A stretch of 64,000 nucleotides of DNA from Okamejei kenojei (taxonomy: Eukaryota), in NCBI GenBank assembly GCA_035221665.1, contig CM069138.1, forward strand, positions 15,562,001 to 15,626,000, written 5' to 3'. The translations under genes were made by a program, and so were the position numbers. The notes below the pieces were generated by a model. That model worked only from the letters and a program-made list of their open reading frames with translations. It had not been told where the DNA came from and ran no database searches. How positions within the stretch are numbered: the stretch's first letter is position 1; the number at the start of each line of letters is the position of its first letter. Positions 5,449-52,984 of the stretch are shown here, piece by piece.

Positions 5449-5979
5449 GGCCCTGTCCCACTTACGTGTCCTTGGCATGCAAATTACGCGACCTCGTCGA
5501 TCGCGTTGAGGCGCACGGGCATCGTGTGGCTGCGTGGGGCCGGTCTCACTGAGAAGCGCGGAGGGGTATGCAGTTGTGCGCGATATCGCAAACAAAATCT
5601 TTGCGCGCCAACGGCCCGTTGCGTAACTGACGGCCAAAGTGGGACAGGCCCAAGACTCTGGCGCGACGCAATGTTTCACCTCCAACTGCAGCAGAAGCAG
5701 GCAGACGATCGTCGAACTCAGCCTGGGTCCCAGATCAGTGAAAATAGGCACAAAATGCAAGAGTAACTCAGCGAGACTGAAGAAGGGTCTCAACCCGAAA
5801 CATCACCATTGCTTCTCTCCAGAGATGCTGCCGGTCCCTCTGAGTTTCTCCTGCATTCTTCAAATGACGTCACGCGCTCCAGACGGCTGTGCAGGCGACC
5901 TTCGCGTGACCGACACGCCTCAACGCGACCACGAGGTCGCGTAATTAGCGTGTCAAGGACACAAAGGTGGGACAGGGCT
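5449..5979. mobile_element. PIF/Harbinger-like MITE with ~65-bp imperfect TIRs and TAA TSD; nested Penelope-repeat piece at ~5745-5860
   Basis: TAA|GGCCCTGTCCCAC...GTGGGACAGGGCT|TAA; TIR extends through AATTACGCGACCTCGT..CGCGTTGAGGCG; 3-bp TWA TSD is typical of Harbinger. Confidence 0.75.
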
Positions 5980-17032: not shown

Positions 17033-17426
17033 ATCCATTCTATCCATTCAGATATCTTTCTTGGATCCCATGCGATCTAACCTACCAGAGCAGCCTACCA
17101 TGCAGAACCTTGTTGATATTAATATGTAAAGCTAAGTGGGACCCGTTGGGTCCCAATATCACATGGGAGGGCTGGTCCCCCAATGCAATATTCCACCTCT
17201 CCACCAATTCCAATATTGGTGGCCAGTGGGCGGAGGGGTGGAGGTTCTGGAGAGCTAGTATGGGTGCTGTGGGCTGAAGGGACTGGTTTCCAGGGGGCTA
17301 GTATGGACATTGTGGGCCGAATGGATTATTGGGCTGGCAGCTCAGTCACTCAAGCCTGTTGTGCTGGCAGCTCACTCACTCATGGCTGGTGGGCTGGCAG
17401 TTGACTCACGGCTATTCCTTGAAATT

Positions 17427-17594
17427 CCATTTCAAGCAGGGTGCAAGGACACCAAATTCAAGTGCAGTTTCTTACCACTTCAAGCAGGGTGCAAGGTCAC
17501 CAAATTCAAGTGCAGTTTCATACCACTTCAAGCAGGGTGCAAGGCCACCAAATTCAAGTGCAGTTTCATACCATTTCACGCAGGGTGCAAGGTC
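17427..17594. repeat. 48-bp tandem repeat, ~3.5 copies
   Basis: CCAYTTCAAGCAGGGTGCAAGG... units start at 17427, 17475, 17523, 17571. Confidence 0.95.
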
Positions 17595-17908
17595 AAAAAG
17601 ACAGTGAGTCGTGAACTCTCCCTCCTCCATCTTGCAGAGACTGACCCATTCCCACATTTCTAGGTTTCATATTCCCTCCCCCCTCCCACTTCATAACGTG
17701 ATTCACAGGAGAGAGAATCTAAACATTTTTTAAACACTAATAATTCTTTTATTTTTCATCGATGGGAAAAATCCTCGGCACCTGATTAGCAGAGGAGGAT
17801 TCTGAGTAAGATGTCCAAAAATAACAGCCGTACGTGGTAGCGTTTTTCCTAAAATCAATATAAAGCACAAACAGGAAGAGGTCAAGATTAGACTTTTAAT
17901 TATATAGA

Positions 17909-18321
17909 AGGCAAGGCAACTATAATTAGGCAAGGCAACTTTAATTAGGCAAGGCAACTATAATTAGGCAAGGCAACTTTAATTAGGCAACACAGCTTTA
18001 GCATTTCTAAACCAAAGGCAACACAGCTTTAGCATTTCTAAACCAAAGGCAACACAGCTTTAGCATTTCTAAACCAAAGGCAACACAGCTTTAGCATTTC
18101 CAAACCAAAGGCAATACAGCTTCAGCATTTCCAAACCAAAGGCAACACAGCTTCAACATTTCCAAACGAAAGCCAACACAGCTTCAGCATTTCCAAACGA
18201 AAGCCAACACAGCTTCAGCATTTCCAAACCAAATGCAACACAGCTTTAGCATTTCCAAACCAAAGGCAACACAGCTTAAGCATTTCCAAACCAAAGGCAA
18301 CACAGCTTTAGCATTTCCAAA
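17909..18321. repeat. Compound minisatellite: 4x19 bp then ~11x31 bp
   Basis: AGGCAAGGCAACTWTAATT x4 (17909-17984), then AGGCAACACAGCTTYAGCATTTCYAAACCAA x~11. Confidence 0.95.
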
Positions 18322-18535
18322 CTATATTTTCAAACCACATTAAAGGCACTGAAAGGTCAGTAAAACCACTCACAGTTTAGTTGACATGTGTTCAGTGTTA
18401 TTCACAGCTCAGACTGAGAGACTCTCGCTCCCCCATCTTGCAGAGACTGACACACTTTTTATCTCTCACGCACCGTGAGAAGTTATGGGGAGAAGGCAGG
18501 AGAATGGGGTTAAGTGGAGAGATAGACCAGCCATT

Positions 18536-19549: not shown

Positions 19550-19742
19550 ACACGCTAACTCACACTCACACACACTCTGTCACACACTGTCTCTCTCTCA
19601 CTCATTCTCTCTCACTCTCACACACTCGCTCTCGCACTGCACTGTCTCACTCACACTTTCACTCACGCAGGTGTGTATACCAAAGATACTAGAGGAGTGG
19701 TGTATACATTGTATACAATCTCTCTCTCACACACACACACAC
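19550..19742. repeat. (CA/CT)-rich low-complexity tract upstream of promoter
   Basis: Interspersed CACA/CTCT runs; tract also extends to 19360-19407. Confidence 0.85.
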
Positions 19743-20134
19743 GCAGGGCGGAGCACGCCGATCCGTGCCCCGCCCACTCCGCCCGGCGCCTGACGTCAGC
19801 GCGCAGGTGTGGGTGCGGGGGGAGGGGCAGCGGCAGCGGCAGCGGGCGGGCCTGATGGCGGCGGCGAGTTCCGTGTTTACACCCGAGAGGAGGACGCCGA
19901 GCAGAGCGCGGTGTCACTGAGCGAGAGGGCAACGTCGACAGAAGCGGGGCGGGGGGTGGGAGGCAGACAGACGGAGAGAAGAAGAGGAGGAAAGGAAGAG
20001 TGAGAGAGAGAGAGAGATGCATTTGGCGGCTTGAGAACGGCTTCCTCCCAGAATTAAACCAAGGAAGGCGCAAGGGGCGGCAGGCAGGCGGCGAAGACGA
20101 CGGGCGCTTGTGTGTTGGTCGCCCGCGGAACGGG
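19743..20134 (+). promoter_or_regulatory. CpG-island promoter / 5' UTR of RALGAPA2
   Basis: CpG-dense; GC boxes (GGGCGG 19746, CCCCGCCC ~19768), full CRE TGACGTCA 19791-19798, YY1-like ATGGCGGC 19855; immediately upstream of the start codon; TSS unknown. Confidence 0.8.
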
Positions 20135-20240
20135 ATGTTTTCCAGAAAGCCTCATGGAGACGTCAAGAAATCTACACAGAAAGTTCTGGACCCAAAGAAG
20201 GACGTGCTGACCCGCCTCAAGCACCTGAGAGCTCTGCTAG
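20135..20240 (+). CDS. RALGAPA2: Ral GTPase-activating protein catalytic subunit alpha-2, first coding exon (106 nt, phase-1 intron follows)
   Basis: [35 protein letters not shown] matches the remembered human RALGAPA2 N-terminus ([36 protein letters not shown]); consensus donor AG|GTGAGT at 20240/20241; DPKKDV and RALL favour A2 over A1. Confidence 0.93.
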
Positions 20241-20968: not shown

Positions 20969-20977
20969 CAAAATCCT

Positions 20978-21137
20978 CACGTGCTACCTGCGTGACGTAT
21001 CCCTTGCGCACGCTGACGTACTGATGGCGTACGATGAAGTACTGGCGGTGTACGTTTAGCACGTGGTGATGCACGAACGTTGCACGTCAGTCACTACCGG
21101 CCTGTCGCGTAAATGACGCCCTAGTGGGACAGGTCCT
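20978..21137. mobile_element. Right end of a Harbinger-like MITE
   Basis: Ends AGTGGGACAGGTCCT|TTA, the same TIR class as 5449-5979 and 51685-52710; left end not seen. Confidence 0.5.
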
Positions 21138-29460: not shown

Positions 29461-31121
29461 AGACACACTATGAAACAATGTGACATACAACCTTCAGTAA
29501 TTTCAGCAGTAACATAAAAATCTTGTAGCTATTACAAATACCTTTTTTTGTTTTTGAAAATCTTGGCAGAGAAATAACTTTATTGTGAGTCTGAAACCCT
29601 TTGGAATCAACCCCTTCCCCCCCCCCCCCCCCCCCCCCCCTCCCATTGACAATTATTTTTAGAATGTGTTTTCCAATAACACAAGGTTTCTTAGGAATGC
29701 AGCAACAGTATCACACCACAGCAGAGTTACCTGTCTTGATAGTTTTAAACATTCCTGGGTGAGCTTATCATAGATGCAATACCAAACTCTATTCTGGTCA
29801 ATCAACGTGGCTCATTTCCAAATGTAATGGTATCTAAGTTGAAGCTTTTAAGGCCTGCTAATGCAGTCGTCTTTTTGTACCCGTTTGAGATGAATAGAAG
29901 TAAAACTCCGTGGTATTTTGGTATACTCAGGATCTGTCTTCACTAAGGAAGACACAAACAATATCCCAGATGTACTAGAGGACAGAGGATCTAAGGGGGG
30001 TAGAGGAACTGAAATAATTTTTCATTAGGCGAGCAATAGTATTGGGTAGGCTAATGGGACTGAAGGATGATAAATCCCATGGGCCTGATGGTCTGCATCC
30101 CAGGGTCCTCAGGGAGGTGGCTCTAGAAATAGCGGATGCATTGGTGATCATTTTACAATGTTCAATAGATTCAGGATCAGTTCTTGTGGATTGGAGGAGA
30201 ACTAATGTTATCCCACTTTTCAAGAAAGGAGAGAGAGAGAAAACGGGGAATTACAGACCAGTTAGCCTGACTTTGGTGGTGGGAAAGATGCTGGAGTCAA
30301 TTATTAAAGAGGTAATAATGGGGCATTTGGATAGCAGTAAAAGGATTAGTCCAAGACAACATGGATTTATGAAAGAGAAATCATGCTTGACTAATCTTCT
30401 GGAAATTTTTGAGGTTGTGACAAGTAAAATGGATGAAGGGGTTCCAGCAAAGTCTGGACTTCCCACAAGGGAGACTGGTGACTAAAATTAGAGCACATGG
30501 TATTGGGGTTAGGGAGTTGACATGGATAGAAAACACTAGCAAGTTTGCGGATGACACAAAGCTGGGTGGCAGTGTGAACTGTGAAGAGGATGTTAAGAGG
30601 TTGCAGGGTGACCTGGACAGGTGAGTGAGTGGGCAGATGCGTGGCAGATGCAGTATAATATAGATAAATGTGAGGTTATCCACTTTGGCGGCAAAAACAA
30701 GGGGCCAGATTATTATCTCTATGGGGTTAGGTTAGGTAAGGGGGAGGTGCAGCGAGACCTGGGCGTCCTTGTACACCAGTCACTGAAAGTTGACGTGCAG
30801 GTACAGCAGGCAGTGAAGAAAGCTAAAGGAATGTTGGCCTTCATAACAAGAGGATTTTAGTATAGGAGTAAAGAGGTTCTTCTGCAGTTGTTTAGGGCTC
30901 TGGTGAGACCACATCTGGAGTATTGTGTACAGTTTTGGTCTCCTAATTTGAGGAAGGACATCCGTGTGATTGAGGCAGTGCAGCGTAGGTTCACGAGATC
31001 GATCTCTGGGATGGCGGGACTGTCATACGAGGAAAGATTTAAAAGACTAGGCTTGTATTCACTGGAGTTTAGAAGGATGAGGGGGATCTTATAGAAACAT
31101 ATAAGATTATTAAGGGATTGG

Positions 31122-31552
31122 CATACCTGCCAACCATTCCGATTTGGGCGGAATTCTTCCGATTTTTCCATCCCAATTCCGAATTCCGATTTTTTTCCTC
31201 AATATTCCGAAAAAAATTGGAATTCGGAATTGGGATGGAAGCGTGCATGCGACCCATGGCGGCGGCGGCGGCGAGGAGACAGCGAGAGAGCGCACCGCGC
31301 CTGCGCCGCTTATGGGGGCACGCACGGGTGTACGCCAGCACGCAGCCGCATGACCCCGCCCCGCCACGGTGGCGTTCGGCGTCACTTGCCCCCCCCCGCA
31401 CTGAGGTCACTTTCCCGCCCTCACTGACGTCACGTGCCCCGCCCCTTACTGACGTCACGTGTCCCGCCCCTTACTGACGTCACGTGCCCCGCCCTCACTG
31501 ACGTCAGACTAATAAGATTCCGATTTTTCATTCTCACAAGTTGGCAGGTATG
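31122..31552. mobile_element. 431-bp MITE with 13-bp perfect TIRs and 6-bp TSD, GC/CpG-rich
   Basis: GATTGG|CATACCTGCCAAC...GTTGGCAGGTATG|GATTGG; removal restores the CR1 sequence ATTAAGGGATTGGACAC seen at 6391-6407. Confidence 0.9.
31414..31506. promoter_or_regulatory. 24-25-bp tandem array of GC box + CRE + E-box motifs
   Basis: TGACGTCA at 31425, 31450, 31475, 31499; the first three overlap CACGTG; each preceded by CCCGCCC; function not shown. Confidence 0.6.
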
Positions 31553-33124
31553 GATTGGACACACTAGAGGCAGGAAACATGTTCCCAATGTTGGGGGAGT
31601 CCAGAACCAGGGGCCACAGTTTAAGAATAAGGGGTAGGCCATTTAGAACGGAGACGAGGAAAAACCTTTTCACCCAGAGTTGTGAATCTGTGGAATTCTC
31701 TGCCTGAGAAGGCAGTGGAGGCCAATTCTTTGGATGCTTTCAAGAGAGACTTCGATAGAGCTCTTAAAGATATGGGGAGAAGGGAGGAACGGGGTACTGA
31801 TTGTGGATGATGAACCATGATCACAATGAATGGCGGTGCTGGCTCGAAGGGCCGAATGGCCTACCCCTGCACCTAATGTCTATTGAAAGAAGGCTGGACT
31901 GGTGTTGAAGTGTTAGTCGGGCAGCACTTTGAGACTAGTAACCAGGTGGATGGCAGAGAACAGGACAATCGATAATATTATACTTTTTTTTAATGGACAA
32001 GGCTAATCTCAACCACTACAGGCTAGTCAGTTTTTACTTGGTGGGAAACATTTTGTGGCAATGTTTAGGAATAAAGAGGAACAATTTGGACAAACGTAGA
32101 TGGATTAGGAAAAGTAATTAAGTGTTCGAAAAAGTAATTTTTAACTACCTTGAATAATTTGATCAGGGGATCAATGGAGGACATGCAGCTGATGTGGTGT
32201 ACATGGACTTTTAAAAGAGTTTTGATAAAGTGTTGCATAATGGGCATATCAAGAAGGAAGCTAATGGAATAAGGCAACATCGAACTGAAAAATAAATAGA
32301 CTTAGTGACATGCAATGTAGTACATGAAGCTCTTCTTAATCACTGATTTACAATCTGCAGTTCTATGTACTTGCAAGCCTGGCCATTTATTATTTGGAGT
32401 GTTGATAAATATAGCCTCCCCTGTGGTATTTGGTGAATGTTGTTTGAGGTGGATTGTATTTATTTATTATCTTGTGCTTGAAACCAATAAAATATCAACA
32501 ACCAGTATGTGGTAAGGATTGGTGTTGCAAATACTTGGGGTGTGGGGTGGATTTGTAACCAGAGCCAGTGTTCCCGTTAGGAGTACCGGAGGCCAGTAAT
32601 GTCGGTAGGTTTGCAGCCAGTCGGGATCTGGAGTGTTTACATGCATCATCTTCTTTTGATAAACTGAAATCTACAAGCTGAAACTTGTGTGGAAGTTGTT
32701 ATATCCATAACAGAGGTTCTACATAATCGTGGCTGATCTACCCCAGGCCTCCACTCATTCTCTGTGCCAGTTCCCAATGGCACTGAATTGATAGATCTTT
32801 CAAAGATTTATCTGTCCCATTTATAAATATATCTCTAGGGATCCAACCTCCACAACTTTCCAGAATTCCTGCGATTCATCATTTCCTGTAAGAAGAAATT
32901 CCTCAGCACCTCTTTTAAAACAAATGCTCCTTATCTTGTAGCTATGCCCCTCGTTTTCACATCTCACTTTACTCGACTTTATCTTGCACTAATCGTTATT
33001 CCCTTTATCCTGCATCTGTACAATGTAAATGGCATGATTGTAAACATAGTCTTTCCGCTGACTGGATAGCATGCAACAAAAGACCTTGGTTCACATGACA
33101 ATAATAAACTAAACCAAAGAAACA

Positions 33125-39520: not shown

Positions 39521-40134
39521 AATATATATATTTTTTTGCTTACTACCTGTACCAAGATGGATCATGTGTTCCATTCATTAAAAGCCTTCCACATATTTGT
39601 CAATGTATTTGATAATTGCTTACCATTCTGGCAACGGGAGACATTATTTTCTTTTTAAAGCTATAGAGATGTTACGTTTTAAGCATTTGGCATGTAAATT
39701 TCATAAGTAATAGATTGTATTTATGCAACTCTCAAGACATATCCCCTATAGTCTGTCATTAGGATAGGAAAAAGATAAAAGCTTGAAAAAAGATTGAAAT
39801 ACGATAATGGATTATTTGGGAATGTTTTAAAGAAGTATTTTGGGATGACACAGTTTAATATTCAGGAATCAAAGTTAAAAAAAAAAGTCCTGTAGTTTCC
39901 AATATTATTGAATGTAAGCCTACCCAGTAAAGTGTAAAGCATGTATATTAGAGTGAATAGACAGGTGGCATTTTGGGTCAGGACCTTTCTACAGACAAAT
40001 GGAATAGAGGGTAGAGAGCTGCAAGAAATGTGGGCATGGGGCAAAGCTTGGCAAGTGCTTAGTGGATGCAGATGAGGGGGTGACTGGTAGATGGGTGGAG
40101 TAAATGACAAAGGGGCTGCAGGGCAAGGAAGACC

Positions 40135-41222
40135 TCCACAGCTGTTGACAGAAGAATTCTCTCTATAATAAGGAAAAACACCTGTCCGACGGATCAGAAA
40201 CATTCTTCAGGAATCGGATGTGGATTTGTCAATGACCACTGTCTGCAGAAGATTTCATGACAGAAATATAGAGGCTACATTGCACGATGCAAATCACTGG
40301 TTAGCCGCAAAAATAGGATGGCCAGGTTACAATTTGCCAAGAAGTACTTAAAAGAGCAACCACAGTTCCGGAAAAAGGTCTTCTGGACAGATGAGACAAA
40401 GATTAACATATCAGAGTGATGGCAAGAGCAAAGTACGGAGTAGAGAAGGAACTGCCCAAGATCGAAAGCATACCACCTCATCTGTGAACCACAGTGGTGG
40501 GGGTGTTGTGGCCTGGGCATGTATGGCTGCCGAAGGTACTGACACACCTATCTTCATTGATGATACAACTGCTGATGATAGTAGCACAATGAATTCTGAA
40601 GTGTATAGATACATCCTATCTGCTCAAGTTCAAACAAATGCCTCAAAACTCATTGGCCGGCGGTTCATTCTACAGCAAGACAATGATCCCAAACAAACTG
40701 CTAAAGCAACAAAGGAGTTTTTCAATGCTACAAAATTGTAAATTGTTGAGTGGCGAAGTCAATAACCCGATCTGAACCCAATTGAGCATGCCTTTAATAT
40801 GCTGAAGAGAAAACTGTAGGGGACTAGCCCCCAAAACAAGCATAAACTAAAGATGGCTGCATTACAGGCCTGGCAAAGCATCACCAGAGAAGACACCTAG
40901 CAACTGGTGATGTCCATGAATCGCAGACTTCAAGCAGTCATTGCATGCAAAGAATATGCAACAAAATACTAAACATGACTACTTTCATTTACATGACATT
41001 GCTGTGTCCCAAACATTATGGTGCCCTAAAATGGGAGCATGTATAAACACTGCTGTAATTTCTACATGGTGAAACCAAAATGTATAAGAATTGCCTTTAT
41101 TAAAATCTGACAATGTGCACTTTACCCACATGTGAGTTTTTTTTCTATTACAAATCTCAAATTGTGGAGATTTGTGGAGAAAAAATGATGGGTCTTAGTC
41201 CCAAACATTATGGAGGGCACTG
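40135..41222 (+). mobile_element. Tc1 (DD34E) transposon, 5'-truncated, inactivated transposase, IR/DR-type right end
   Basis: KVFWTDETKIN; FILQQDNDPK..(34 residues, two stops)..PDLNPIE; terminal GGAGGGCACTG|TA; direct repeat GTCCCAAACATTATGG at 41006 and 41198. Confidence 0.9.
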
Positions 41223-42029
41223 TATGTGTTTTCAATTTTCTGTGCCTCTTGCCTGATGAGGAAGTTTTTACCAGATTGCATGTAGCCTCATTTTGAAAAT
41301 GGAGGAGGCAAAATGATATTTTGTTGGGATGATTCTTAAAAATGATTTACATTTGGTATGATGGGAAGATTTGATTTCTATTTTCGTGTGTCTTTGATTG
41401 TGTACAGGCAGAAGCTATTGCATTCAAACCAGCTAAATATTGTAATTGTCTTGTGGAGCTGTTTGCACAAGGGAAAATATTTAGTTGTTTTACTCCATCA
41501 GGTGATTTAAAAAAATATATTTTTTTACATTTCTATTTTAACCATCTTTAAGCCTGATAATTTCTTTTGAAATATTCTAATTACAATCTCAGCAACCAGC
41601 TGAACTTGAGTCGCTGATAGTGTTCAATTGTTTAAAACATAATGACATGATAAATGTTATAAATACATCGTTTCATCTCAGACTGCGTGAAACCTTGTTA
41701 TTTAGGAGATATATATATTCATGTGTTTTGGGAACACGGCCTTGTAATGTCATTGGTAATTACAGTATGTACGATTACACAGATTTGTATTCTTCCCCAA
41801 GTAAGTCACTTGTCTGCAAATGGTCTGATTATAGGTTTGGGGTGCCTGGGAGAATATAGAGGAGAGATTTTTCCCCTTGCAAAAGTGGATGTTAATGCAC
41901 GTAATTTTATGTTGCGTTTACTTGGAAGTGGTAGAGAATTAAAAAAAACATTGAGATAACTTAAAATTATTCCAGAGACTTTCTTTATAATTCAGAAAAA
42001 TCAGCACATGGAGCGTGCAGTATATAAAT

Positions 42030-51382: not shown

Positions 51383-51684
51383 TCAAAATAGTTTGGACTT
51401 TCTTTGCACCTTGTACTGACCAAAGAATTTGACACTGCTCATTTAAGCAAGTGCTTACCTTTGCAACATGAGATTGTAGTTTGAATTTGACATATATTTG
51501 CCTCATTACATCTCATTTTCTGCACAGTATCTATCTCATTTTCTGCACAGGCCTCTGTTGTATGTCATGGCTGATGTTCAGTGTGCTTTCAAATCCTTGG
51601 AGATTCTGAATCAACAGAGCGGTGCTCACTTTGAAGTTGAGGTTCTTGAATCAGAAAAGTCTGTCTTGATCAGAGAAACAGTTA

Positions 51685-52710
51685 AGGGCCTGTCCCACTT
51701 AGGCAGCGAGTTTAGGAGACTCTGCGCTGACCACAAGGTCGCCACATGGTTGCAGGTTTTCTGCGACCAAGAATTGGTTGCTATGGAGAAAATCGATACT
51801 TTTGTAGTCGTAGTGGGTCGCCACGTTATCGTAGATAGTCGCGATGGTCGTAGGTAGTCTTAGTTAATCGCCTTTGCTGACCGGTCATTTTCATTGGCTC
51901 ATTGCGGGGAAAAAAAGGTATGTAAACAGCAGCACGTGATGCGCTGTCATTCCAGTGCGCGGTCATTGCGCAATTTTTGTTTTTTCAGTGGATCAGACGG
52001 TATGAGACGTGGCTCCGAGGAGAAGGCTTCGGCACAGGGGCACGGCACAACCCTCAACACCATCCACCAGGCTGTTATCAACATTTGTTTGCTTATAAGA
52101 CTTTTGTATGTTTAATTACCAATAACGGAAATCCCTGACTTTTTAACCTCAAATTGATGTATGAATATCATTCTTTTCATAGTAGTCCCTCATGTCATCA
52201 CTTATATCTCATATTTAATTTCTCATATTTAGATCATTGAAACACACACAAATGCAAGGAATGGAATGGACTGTATTTAAAATTTGACTTTTCACATTTA
52301 TTTTGATGAAGAAAACAGACACATGCACTTCAAATGCACTGCATTTAAAAGCATTTTATTTTTATACATCTCGAACAATTAATACTGAATTTAAAAGAAC
52401 AAAAGAAAATCTAATGTCATTTTTTTAGGTGATATTACAACTATAGAGTCGTAGCTTGCTTTCTGTGATCATGGCTGTAGTTGTCTGGAAGTCGAATGTG
52501 GTCGTCTTCAGTCCCCACTATTGGGTCGCCAATTGTCACAAGTGAATCGGCGATTAAGTTGTAGATAGTCGGAGCTTGTCCTACATAGTTGTAGGATGTC
52601 TTCTACACAGTCGTAGGATGAGTTTGATACATTCACTTTTTCAGTGATTCAACAAGACTATGACAGTCGCCTGCACTCGCAAAAGAAGTCGCCTAAGTGG
52701 GACAGGCCCT
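51685..52710. mobile_element. PIF/Harbinger-like non-autonomous DNA transposon, 1026 bp
   Basis: TTA|AGGGCCTGTCCCACTTAGGC...GCCTAAGTGGGACAGGCCCT|TTA: perfect 20-bp TIR, 3-bp TTA TSD. Confidence 0.88.
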
Positions 52711-52984
52711 TTAGATAGCGAGATTCTTCTGCAAGCTCAATCTGTTCCCCAGGATTTAGTTTTGGAACTATTGAGTAATAATTTCATTATTTGCTGGTGT
52801 TGTATTGCCACCTTTGATTGTTTGATTGGTTGTACGCATCAATACAGATGTAAACCTGGATTTGATCTTTTCTGTTTATTGCCACCCGACAGATGCAACC
52901 CATGTCATTAATTTTTCAACTCTCACTAATATGAGTGAACAAGTGTTGACGTTTTTTTTTGTGAACAAAGTAATCCTGTGGTAT

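Follow-up and report, generated by a model that had tools for sequence, protein, structure and literature searches.

MITEs have amplified binding sites in plants, namely those of E2F and bZIP60 and the PIF3/G-box sites (PMC5950925, citing Henaff 2014). In the frog, a hAT MITE has 7,230 copies, of which 47 lie in open chromatin specific to the liver (PMC12676858). IAP repeats with a CRE stay silent as long as they are methylated (PMC9729108). Transposons of the hAT superfamily with a 6-bp target-site duplication (TSD) are known as hAT6 (Kapitonov and Jurka 2007, via PMC12730594); IS3EU elements also have a 6-bp TSD, with TIRs of over 30 bp and ends TAYGG..CCRTA (PMC12730594).

Here we describe a 431-bp element in a window of 64,000 nucleotides, the whole stretch of DNA that was analyzed. 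In the reading that we favor, with a probability of roughly 0.55, it would be a young, abundant hAT6-like non-autonomous transposon that carries a captured housekeeping 5' passenger and whose copies are latent and mostly silent. No account of the family was found in the literature on hAT6, on the TIR words, on MITEs with captured promoters, or on skate and chondrichthyan MITEs; Repbase Reports and most subscription journals were outside this search, and the silence of the literature does not show that the family is undescribed.

Structure and family assignment of the element

The element is a MITE inserted in a LINE remnant (Table 1), about 11 kb downstream of RALGAPA2 exon 1. The first-pass annotation had placed it inside intron 1, which fits the upstream position of exon 1 and the failure of a search with short motifs to find exon 2 in the window, but falls short of proof. 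The interrupted LINE, which we take to be of the CR1 type, matches RVT_1 at E 3e-6, under the Pfam cut-off, and has R2/L1 ORF2 matches. This LINE copy has CpGs at 30964, 31000, 31028, and 31655, where most contigs aligned there have none, and it lacks one CpG; the extra CpGs are unexpected for an old methylated copy and may be a subfamily mark.

The perfect 13-bp TIRs reported earlier were borne out, and the TSD is the 6-bp word GATTGG on both sides, which occurs once only in four other LINE copies of the window. In runs X1, X13, and X6, LINE contigs skip 437 bases, that is, the 431-bp element and one 6-bp duplication. A 7-bp TSD was ruled out, because the joints skip 437 bases and the symmetry of the TIRs would be lost. 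The 64-kb window holds no second copy. The TSD, the host LINE, the hairpin, and the Kozak ATG on the minus strand were absent from the first-pass annotation. The size, TIRs, and TSD are those of a MITE, and so is the lack of transposase coding, as far as the two core ORFs searched of the five listed (80 and 62 aa) go: neither gave a Pfam match.

The hairpin near the left end belongs to part of the family only: an X13 contig shares its junction, while the main X6 contig departs left of 31240. All 23 Rfam hits on the element fall on this hairpin and under the gathering score, and a miRNA identity is not claimed. The hairpin is of pre-miRNA size (75 nt) and could give small RNAs if transcribed.

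A left-end pattern search of metagenome contigs yielded at least 119 loci, many of them chance matches; 25 of these loci contain both TIRs and were considered complete relatives (L087 and L108 represent one insertion listed twice). Their TSDs are exactly 6 bp in nine cases, match at five of six positions in four, have 7 bp and 8 bp in one case each, and are not evident in 10. The first 45-50 bases of the relatives are similar to the element from 31122 onward. One relative, L077 (L077:442-2529), is a deleted hAT element that spans 2,088 bp, has a 6-bp TSD, and shares the TIR of our element, to which it is 76% identical over 51 nt. It encodes the hAT dimerization domain PF05699 (E 4.4e-8), and it is the only relative in which hAT transposase was found. 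Shorter derivatives of the L077 family (L073, L003, L011, and others) are also present in metagenome contigs. Because the relatives with the same ends mostly have 6-bp TSDs, as this copy does, and one of them holds a hAT transposase fragment, we classify the element as a hAT6-like MITE, an assignment set by ends, TSD, and the domain of one relative. A hAT transposase supplied in trans would bind the TIRs and the subterminal repeats and move the element.

IS3EU was ruled out, since the TIR has 13 bp and starts with CATAC. The TIR words led to no paper on transposons and matched nothing in the one supplement of PMC12730594 that was searched. Two other regions of the window deserve mention. Just upstream of the RALGAPA2 promoter, positions 17125-18440 look like an element in which tandem arrays of 30, 48, 19, and 31 bp are stacked. 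By eye, 40100-41230 resembles a decayed transposase remnant of the Tc1/mariner type; the one translated frame was uninformative.

Table 1. Positions of features in the 64,000-nucleotide window
Feature	Position	Strand	Remark
RALGAPA2 CpG-island promoter	about 19600-20200		
RALGAPA2 coding exon 1	20135..20240	+	match E 3e-15
Host broken non-LTR retrotransposon, interrupted by MITE	30018..31885	+	left edge approximate; 3' end near 31883-31885
Left target-site duplication GATTGG	31116..31121	+	single-copy site in 4 other window LINE copies
Whole non-autonomous element	31122..31552	.	431 bp; TIRs and joints skipping 437 in LINE empty sites
Left TIR, 13 bp	31122..31134	+	homologous to transposase-5' end of relative L077
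Subterminal ATTCCGATTT repeats	31136..31192 (starts 31136, 31156, 31183)	+	likely transposase sites; similar motif in relatives
Hairpin, 32-nt arms, 97% complementary, 11-nt loop	31166..31240 (75 bp)	.	
Perfect Kozak start (ATG 31257-31255): ATG G after five GCC triplets	31254..31272	-	
Pyrimidine tract, 16/18	31273..31290	-	possible start region; no canonical TCT word
NRF1-like site	31297..31306	-	one mismatch vs palindrome core
GC box outside array	31354..31361	-	
Tandem array, 5.2 units x 25 bp	31380..31506	.	carries four perfect CREs, three E-boxes, and four GC boxes; two of the units are degenerate
Right subterminal ATTCCGATTT	31517..31526	+	
Right TIR, 13 bp	31540..31552	-	
Right target-site duplication GATTGG	31553..31558	+	

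Abundance, age, and variation of the family

Twenty of the 24 listed sequencing runs contain part of the stretch; runs with shares of 0.2 or less were left out, and four (X1, X6, X13, and X21) were aligned to it. The flank in X1 shows 99.5% identity (three substitutions and one gap in 844 nt) at a depth of 11.6. Six bins inside the element sum to depths of 33,273-213,264 in this run, or 2,868-18,385 times the single-copy flank, values that are inflated by overlapping contigs and are not copy numbers. A fair reading is a family of roughly thousands of copies, a rough estimate from depth and not an assembly count. A single X6 contig with a depth of 2,603 covers 31240-31397 with one difference, and 12 of the 13 flank bins in X6 are empty. 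Across 31166-31397, this copy and the family contigs of X13 and X6 differ at one of 232 nt. High copy number and homogeneity, as in a MITE, are thus observed, if roughly, and it is supported that the MITE is mobile, young, and abundant. None of the X1 contigs listed bridges this insertion. Among the joints listed, which left out 312, no variation in array length was visible.

The first-pass annotation attributed the intact CpGs to youth or hypomethylation. All 28 CpGs of 31166-31397 are intact because the copy is too young for decay, so that youth alone is sufficient; for hypomethylation there is a weak hint. None of three private transitions lies at a CpG (among the 40 variants listed out of 67), an outcome with a chance of 0.08 or 0.02 if CpGs change 5 or 10 times faster than other sites and of 0.50 if they change equally. 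With n=3 and possible assembly errors, this hints weakly at low germline methylation.

The element has at least five variants among those 40, and three of them are private to this copy. G31436A accounts for 76% of the X1 depth and alters E-box 1, and G31459C (9% in X1, 37% in X6) alters E-box 2; two E-boxes thus vary in the family, and fixed E-boxes are not supported. The CREs are unaltered in the five variants listed, which is not significant, as CREs make up a quarter of the array.

In 1,523 million letters of run X21 (organism F), not one read falls on the element. Coverage of the element came from contigs only, the one raw-read run having none on it. In X13 (organism B), the element is present at a depth of 7-26 without unique flank, and the LINE-to-element ratio is 131, compared with 160 in X6. 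Presence in a second species was not accepted on this basis, since a trace of organism A DNA would give the same pattern.

Organization and possible origin of the core

The element has a GC content of 0.59, 44 CpGs, and a CpG o/e of 1.19 (0.47 in the window, 0.44 and 0.36 in the flanks). It thus passes the thresholds for CpG islands, which are a length over 200 bp, GC over 0.5, and CpG o/e over 0.6. Such look-alikes are not rare in the window, because a second TIR element at 5450-5978 (48-nt arms, 88%) is equally CpG-island-like (o/e about 1.0-1.1) and holds a CRE at 5865 along with a nested short repeat. A relative of this second element, with the same terminal word and perfect 21-nt arms, lies at 51684-52711. 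In RALGAPA2 intron 1, a C-rich run and an assembly gap are followed directly by a short CpG-rich region (20973-21115) that has E-boxes and several TGACG half-sites.

Every motif reported for the element was found in its place: the CRE TGACGTCA at 31425, 31450, 31475, and 31499 with spacing 25/25/24, the E-box CACGTG at 31431, 31456, and 31481, the GC box CCGCCC at 31356, 31415, 31439, 31464, and 31489, the NRF1-like word GCGCCTGCGC at 31297, and the YY1-like ATGGCGG at 31256. Their weight is another matter, since the four CREs, treated earlier as separate evidence, are tandem copies of one 25-bp unit and represent a single event, although four CREs were reached in none of 5,000 shuffles. When the array was collapsed to one full unit, the CRE remained significant in shuffles (P 0.002), and the exact NRF1-like word had P 0.012 (0.09 for any NRF1 core with one mismatch); the E-box (0.17), GC boxes (0.16), and YY1-like word (0.06) were within chance. 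The array unit had no match in viral contigs.

The first-pass annotation also pointed to the same motifs at the real promoter upstream. They are present there, with a CRE at 19791, GC boxes at 19768-19779, and ATGGCGG at 19855, but a link between the two is not supported, as the matches are of motif length only (longest common exact stretch at most 12 nt). The RALGAPA2 promoter was ruled out as a homolog or donor of the core on the same ground.

Read on the minus strand from the right TIR, the core consists of 46 bp, the array of CREs, E-boxes, and GC boxes, a further GC box, the NRF1-like site, the pyrimidine tract, and finally ATG G preceded by five GCC triplets. The YY1-like word is the Kozak start read from the other strand, and such overlap of the Kozak consensus with YY1 words is frequent (PMC3429435). 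The Kozak match is the only perfect one on either strand of the window. Judged from motif order, the layout looks like a housekeeping promoter followed by its leader and start codon. The description of the element as a mobile, CpG-island promoter-like cassette thus agrees with how the core is built and with the youth and abundance of the MITE.

A core without promoter ancestry would have arisen within the MITE as a GC-rich minisatellite and a GCC run, or its 25-bp units would be additional transposase-binding repeats, with incidental motifs in either case. Most motifs are indeed within chance after collapse, the array begins 46 bp inside the right end, and MITEs commonly contain internal direct repeats (PMC12676858). 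Nevertheless, even a single CRE is improbable at P 0.002, the window has no other perfect Kozak match and this one stands in the right order, and the conserved subterminal motif of the relatives is a different word. We regard this origin as improbable.

For a core with promoter ancestry, the first-pass annotation left two sources, a captured promoter or the parent's own. A deletion derivative keeps the promoter and a Kozak ATG near one end, and the core could be a remnant of the parent transposon itself, whose promoter, leader, and start codon survived when the transposase gene was deleted internally. The main X6 contig is consistent with this, since 54 nt of it immediately beyond the ATG region, to the left of 31240, do not resemble the window. 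On the other hand, the transposase fragment of L077 leaves the 31122-type end and the cassette faces that end, against the transposase direction inferred from this single remnant; TGACGTCA occurs in 0 of the 25 complete relatives; and the two core ORFs do not resemble known Pfam domains. The parent's own promoter is consequently an improbable source.

Capture is favored because the cassette opposes the transposase direction of L077 and the relatives lack the CRE. The promoter-like order, together with an X6 contig that joins exactly at 31255, after the ATG, is the reason why a captured 5' end of a housekeeping gene appears likelier than the parent's own promoter; we consider it moderately likely, though unproven. 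The contig has a loose end of 255 letters. On the assumption that it alone accounts for the leftover bin depth of X6, its match would span about 30-75 nt, which is longer than the GCC run of 19 nt. Thirty letters of the loose end, read by hand as 10 codons, have Trp at residue 3 and Tyr at residue 6 and presumably resemble profilin starts overall. Trp3 and Tyr6 of profilin have the same spacing (PMC2694148). A profilin gene as donor is a lead and not a result, since it comes from a single contig that was possibly matched through the GCC run alone.

Under the capture reading, the 270-bp core would be a passenger, made up of promoter, short leader, and Kozak ATG, that a host housekeeping gene (possibly profilin) contributed with its 5' end. 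Tandem duplication would then have multiplied the CRE/GC-box unit, hitch-hiking would have spread it, and the core would remain CpG-island-like for lack of time to decay.

Expected activity and comparison with known systems

The cassette had been described as cAMP-responsive. No TATA(A/T)(A/T) occurs within 300 bp on either strand, the only candidate being CATAAG at 31314 on the minus strand, and the CRE/TATA arrangement of cAMP-inducible promoters (PMC5740062) is thus lacking. In the same study, TATA-less CRE promoters were not induced in mouse neurons (PMC5740062). The absence of a TATA box makes cAMP induction doubtful. The copies are more plausibly latent promoters of the CREB/Sp1 type that would work only when unmethylated, with basal rather than cAMP-induced activity, and most of them would be silent; the evidence on silencing and on TATA comes from mouse cells.

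In a stronger version, the element would be a working portable promoter or enhancer: many copies would stay unmethylated, bind CREB/ATF, Sp1, and NRF1, and start or strengthen transcription in their vicinity, here of RALGAPA2 or antisense towards its exon 1. The motif order on the minus strand, the four perfect CREs unaltered in the five variants listed (not significant), the lack of CpG loss among the three private changes and the 28 CpGs, and the in vivo binding of MITE-borne sites in plants (PMC5950925, citing Henaff 2014) are all consistent with it. The lack of a TATA box, the variable E-boxes, and the explanation of the CpGs by youth argue against it, as do the small share of open copies in the frog (PMC12676858) and, crudely, the lower element-to-LINE depth in X6, which may be RNA, than in the DNA run X1 (1:160 vs 1:39). 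We consider widespread activity of this kind unlikely. Because of the frog share, the prior for an action of this copy on RALGAPA2 is low, and the copy probably does nothing for that gene.

The most far-reaching possibility, which we hold to be distinctly unlikely, is that the MITE took over from a housekeeping gene (profilin) everything from the promoter through the leader to the start codon, amplified the CRE/GC unit, and scattered thousands of CpG-island promoters over a vertebrate genome, recently enough for some copies to be methylation-resistant and active. Such a family would be a natural, still-segregating test of how a CpG island forms and is kept unmethylated at a new site. If only the captured-promoter reading is true, the effects of sequence and position on methylation and activity could be measured with thousands of near-identical promoter copies that lie at different sites and vary naturally in their E-boxes and array units. 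If most copies are silent, this is another young MITE family, which aids repeat annotation and cautions that young elements mimic CpG islands.

One close parallel is the Xenopus tropicalis element hAT-N16_XT with related MITEs (PMC12676858), likewise a vertebrate hAT MITE with thousands of copies, internal direct repeats, and ATF-type sites. In the frog, however, accessibility was measured and the elements are enhancer-like, whereas here a promoter-leader-ATG layout was read from sequence. Plant MITEs (PMC5950925) also carry binding motifs, including the bZIP and CACGTG types, as passengers; they differ in their hosts and in that E2F binding was proven in vivo. The mouse IAPLTR1/1a (PMC9729108) shares a perfect CRE in a young repeat, with CREB1 binding expected to be gated by methylation. 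An LTR retroelement nevertheless requires its promoter, whereas a MITE does not. With hAT6 the element shares a short TIR, a 6-bp TSD, and a same-TIR relative that has similar ends over 45-50 bp and a hAT dimerization domain; it differs in being non-autonomous and in its CRE array, which the 25 complete relatives lack. Pack-type elements carry host gene fragments, and a host 5' gene piece between TIRs would be the same arrangement if the donor, as yet unproven, is confirmed, although the passenger here comprises a promoter and a leader and extends no further than 15 bp beyond the ATG. The spread of factor-binding sites by MITEs is already known from plants and the frog, and this family is one more such element.
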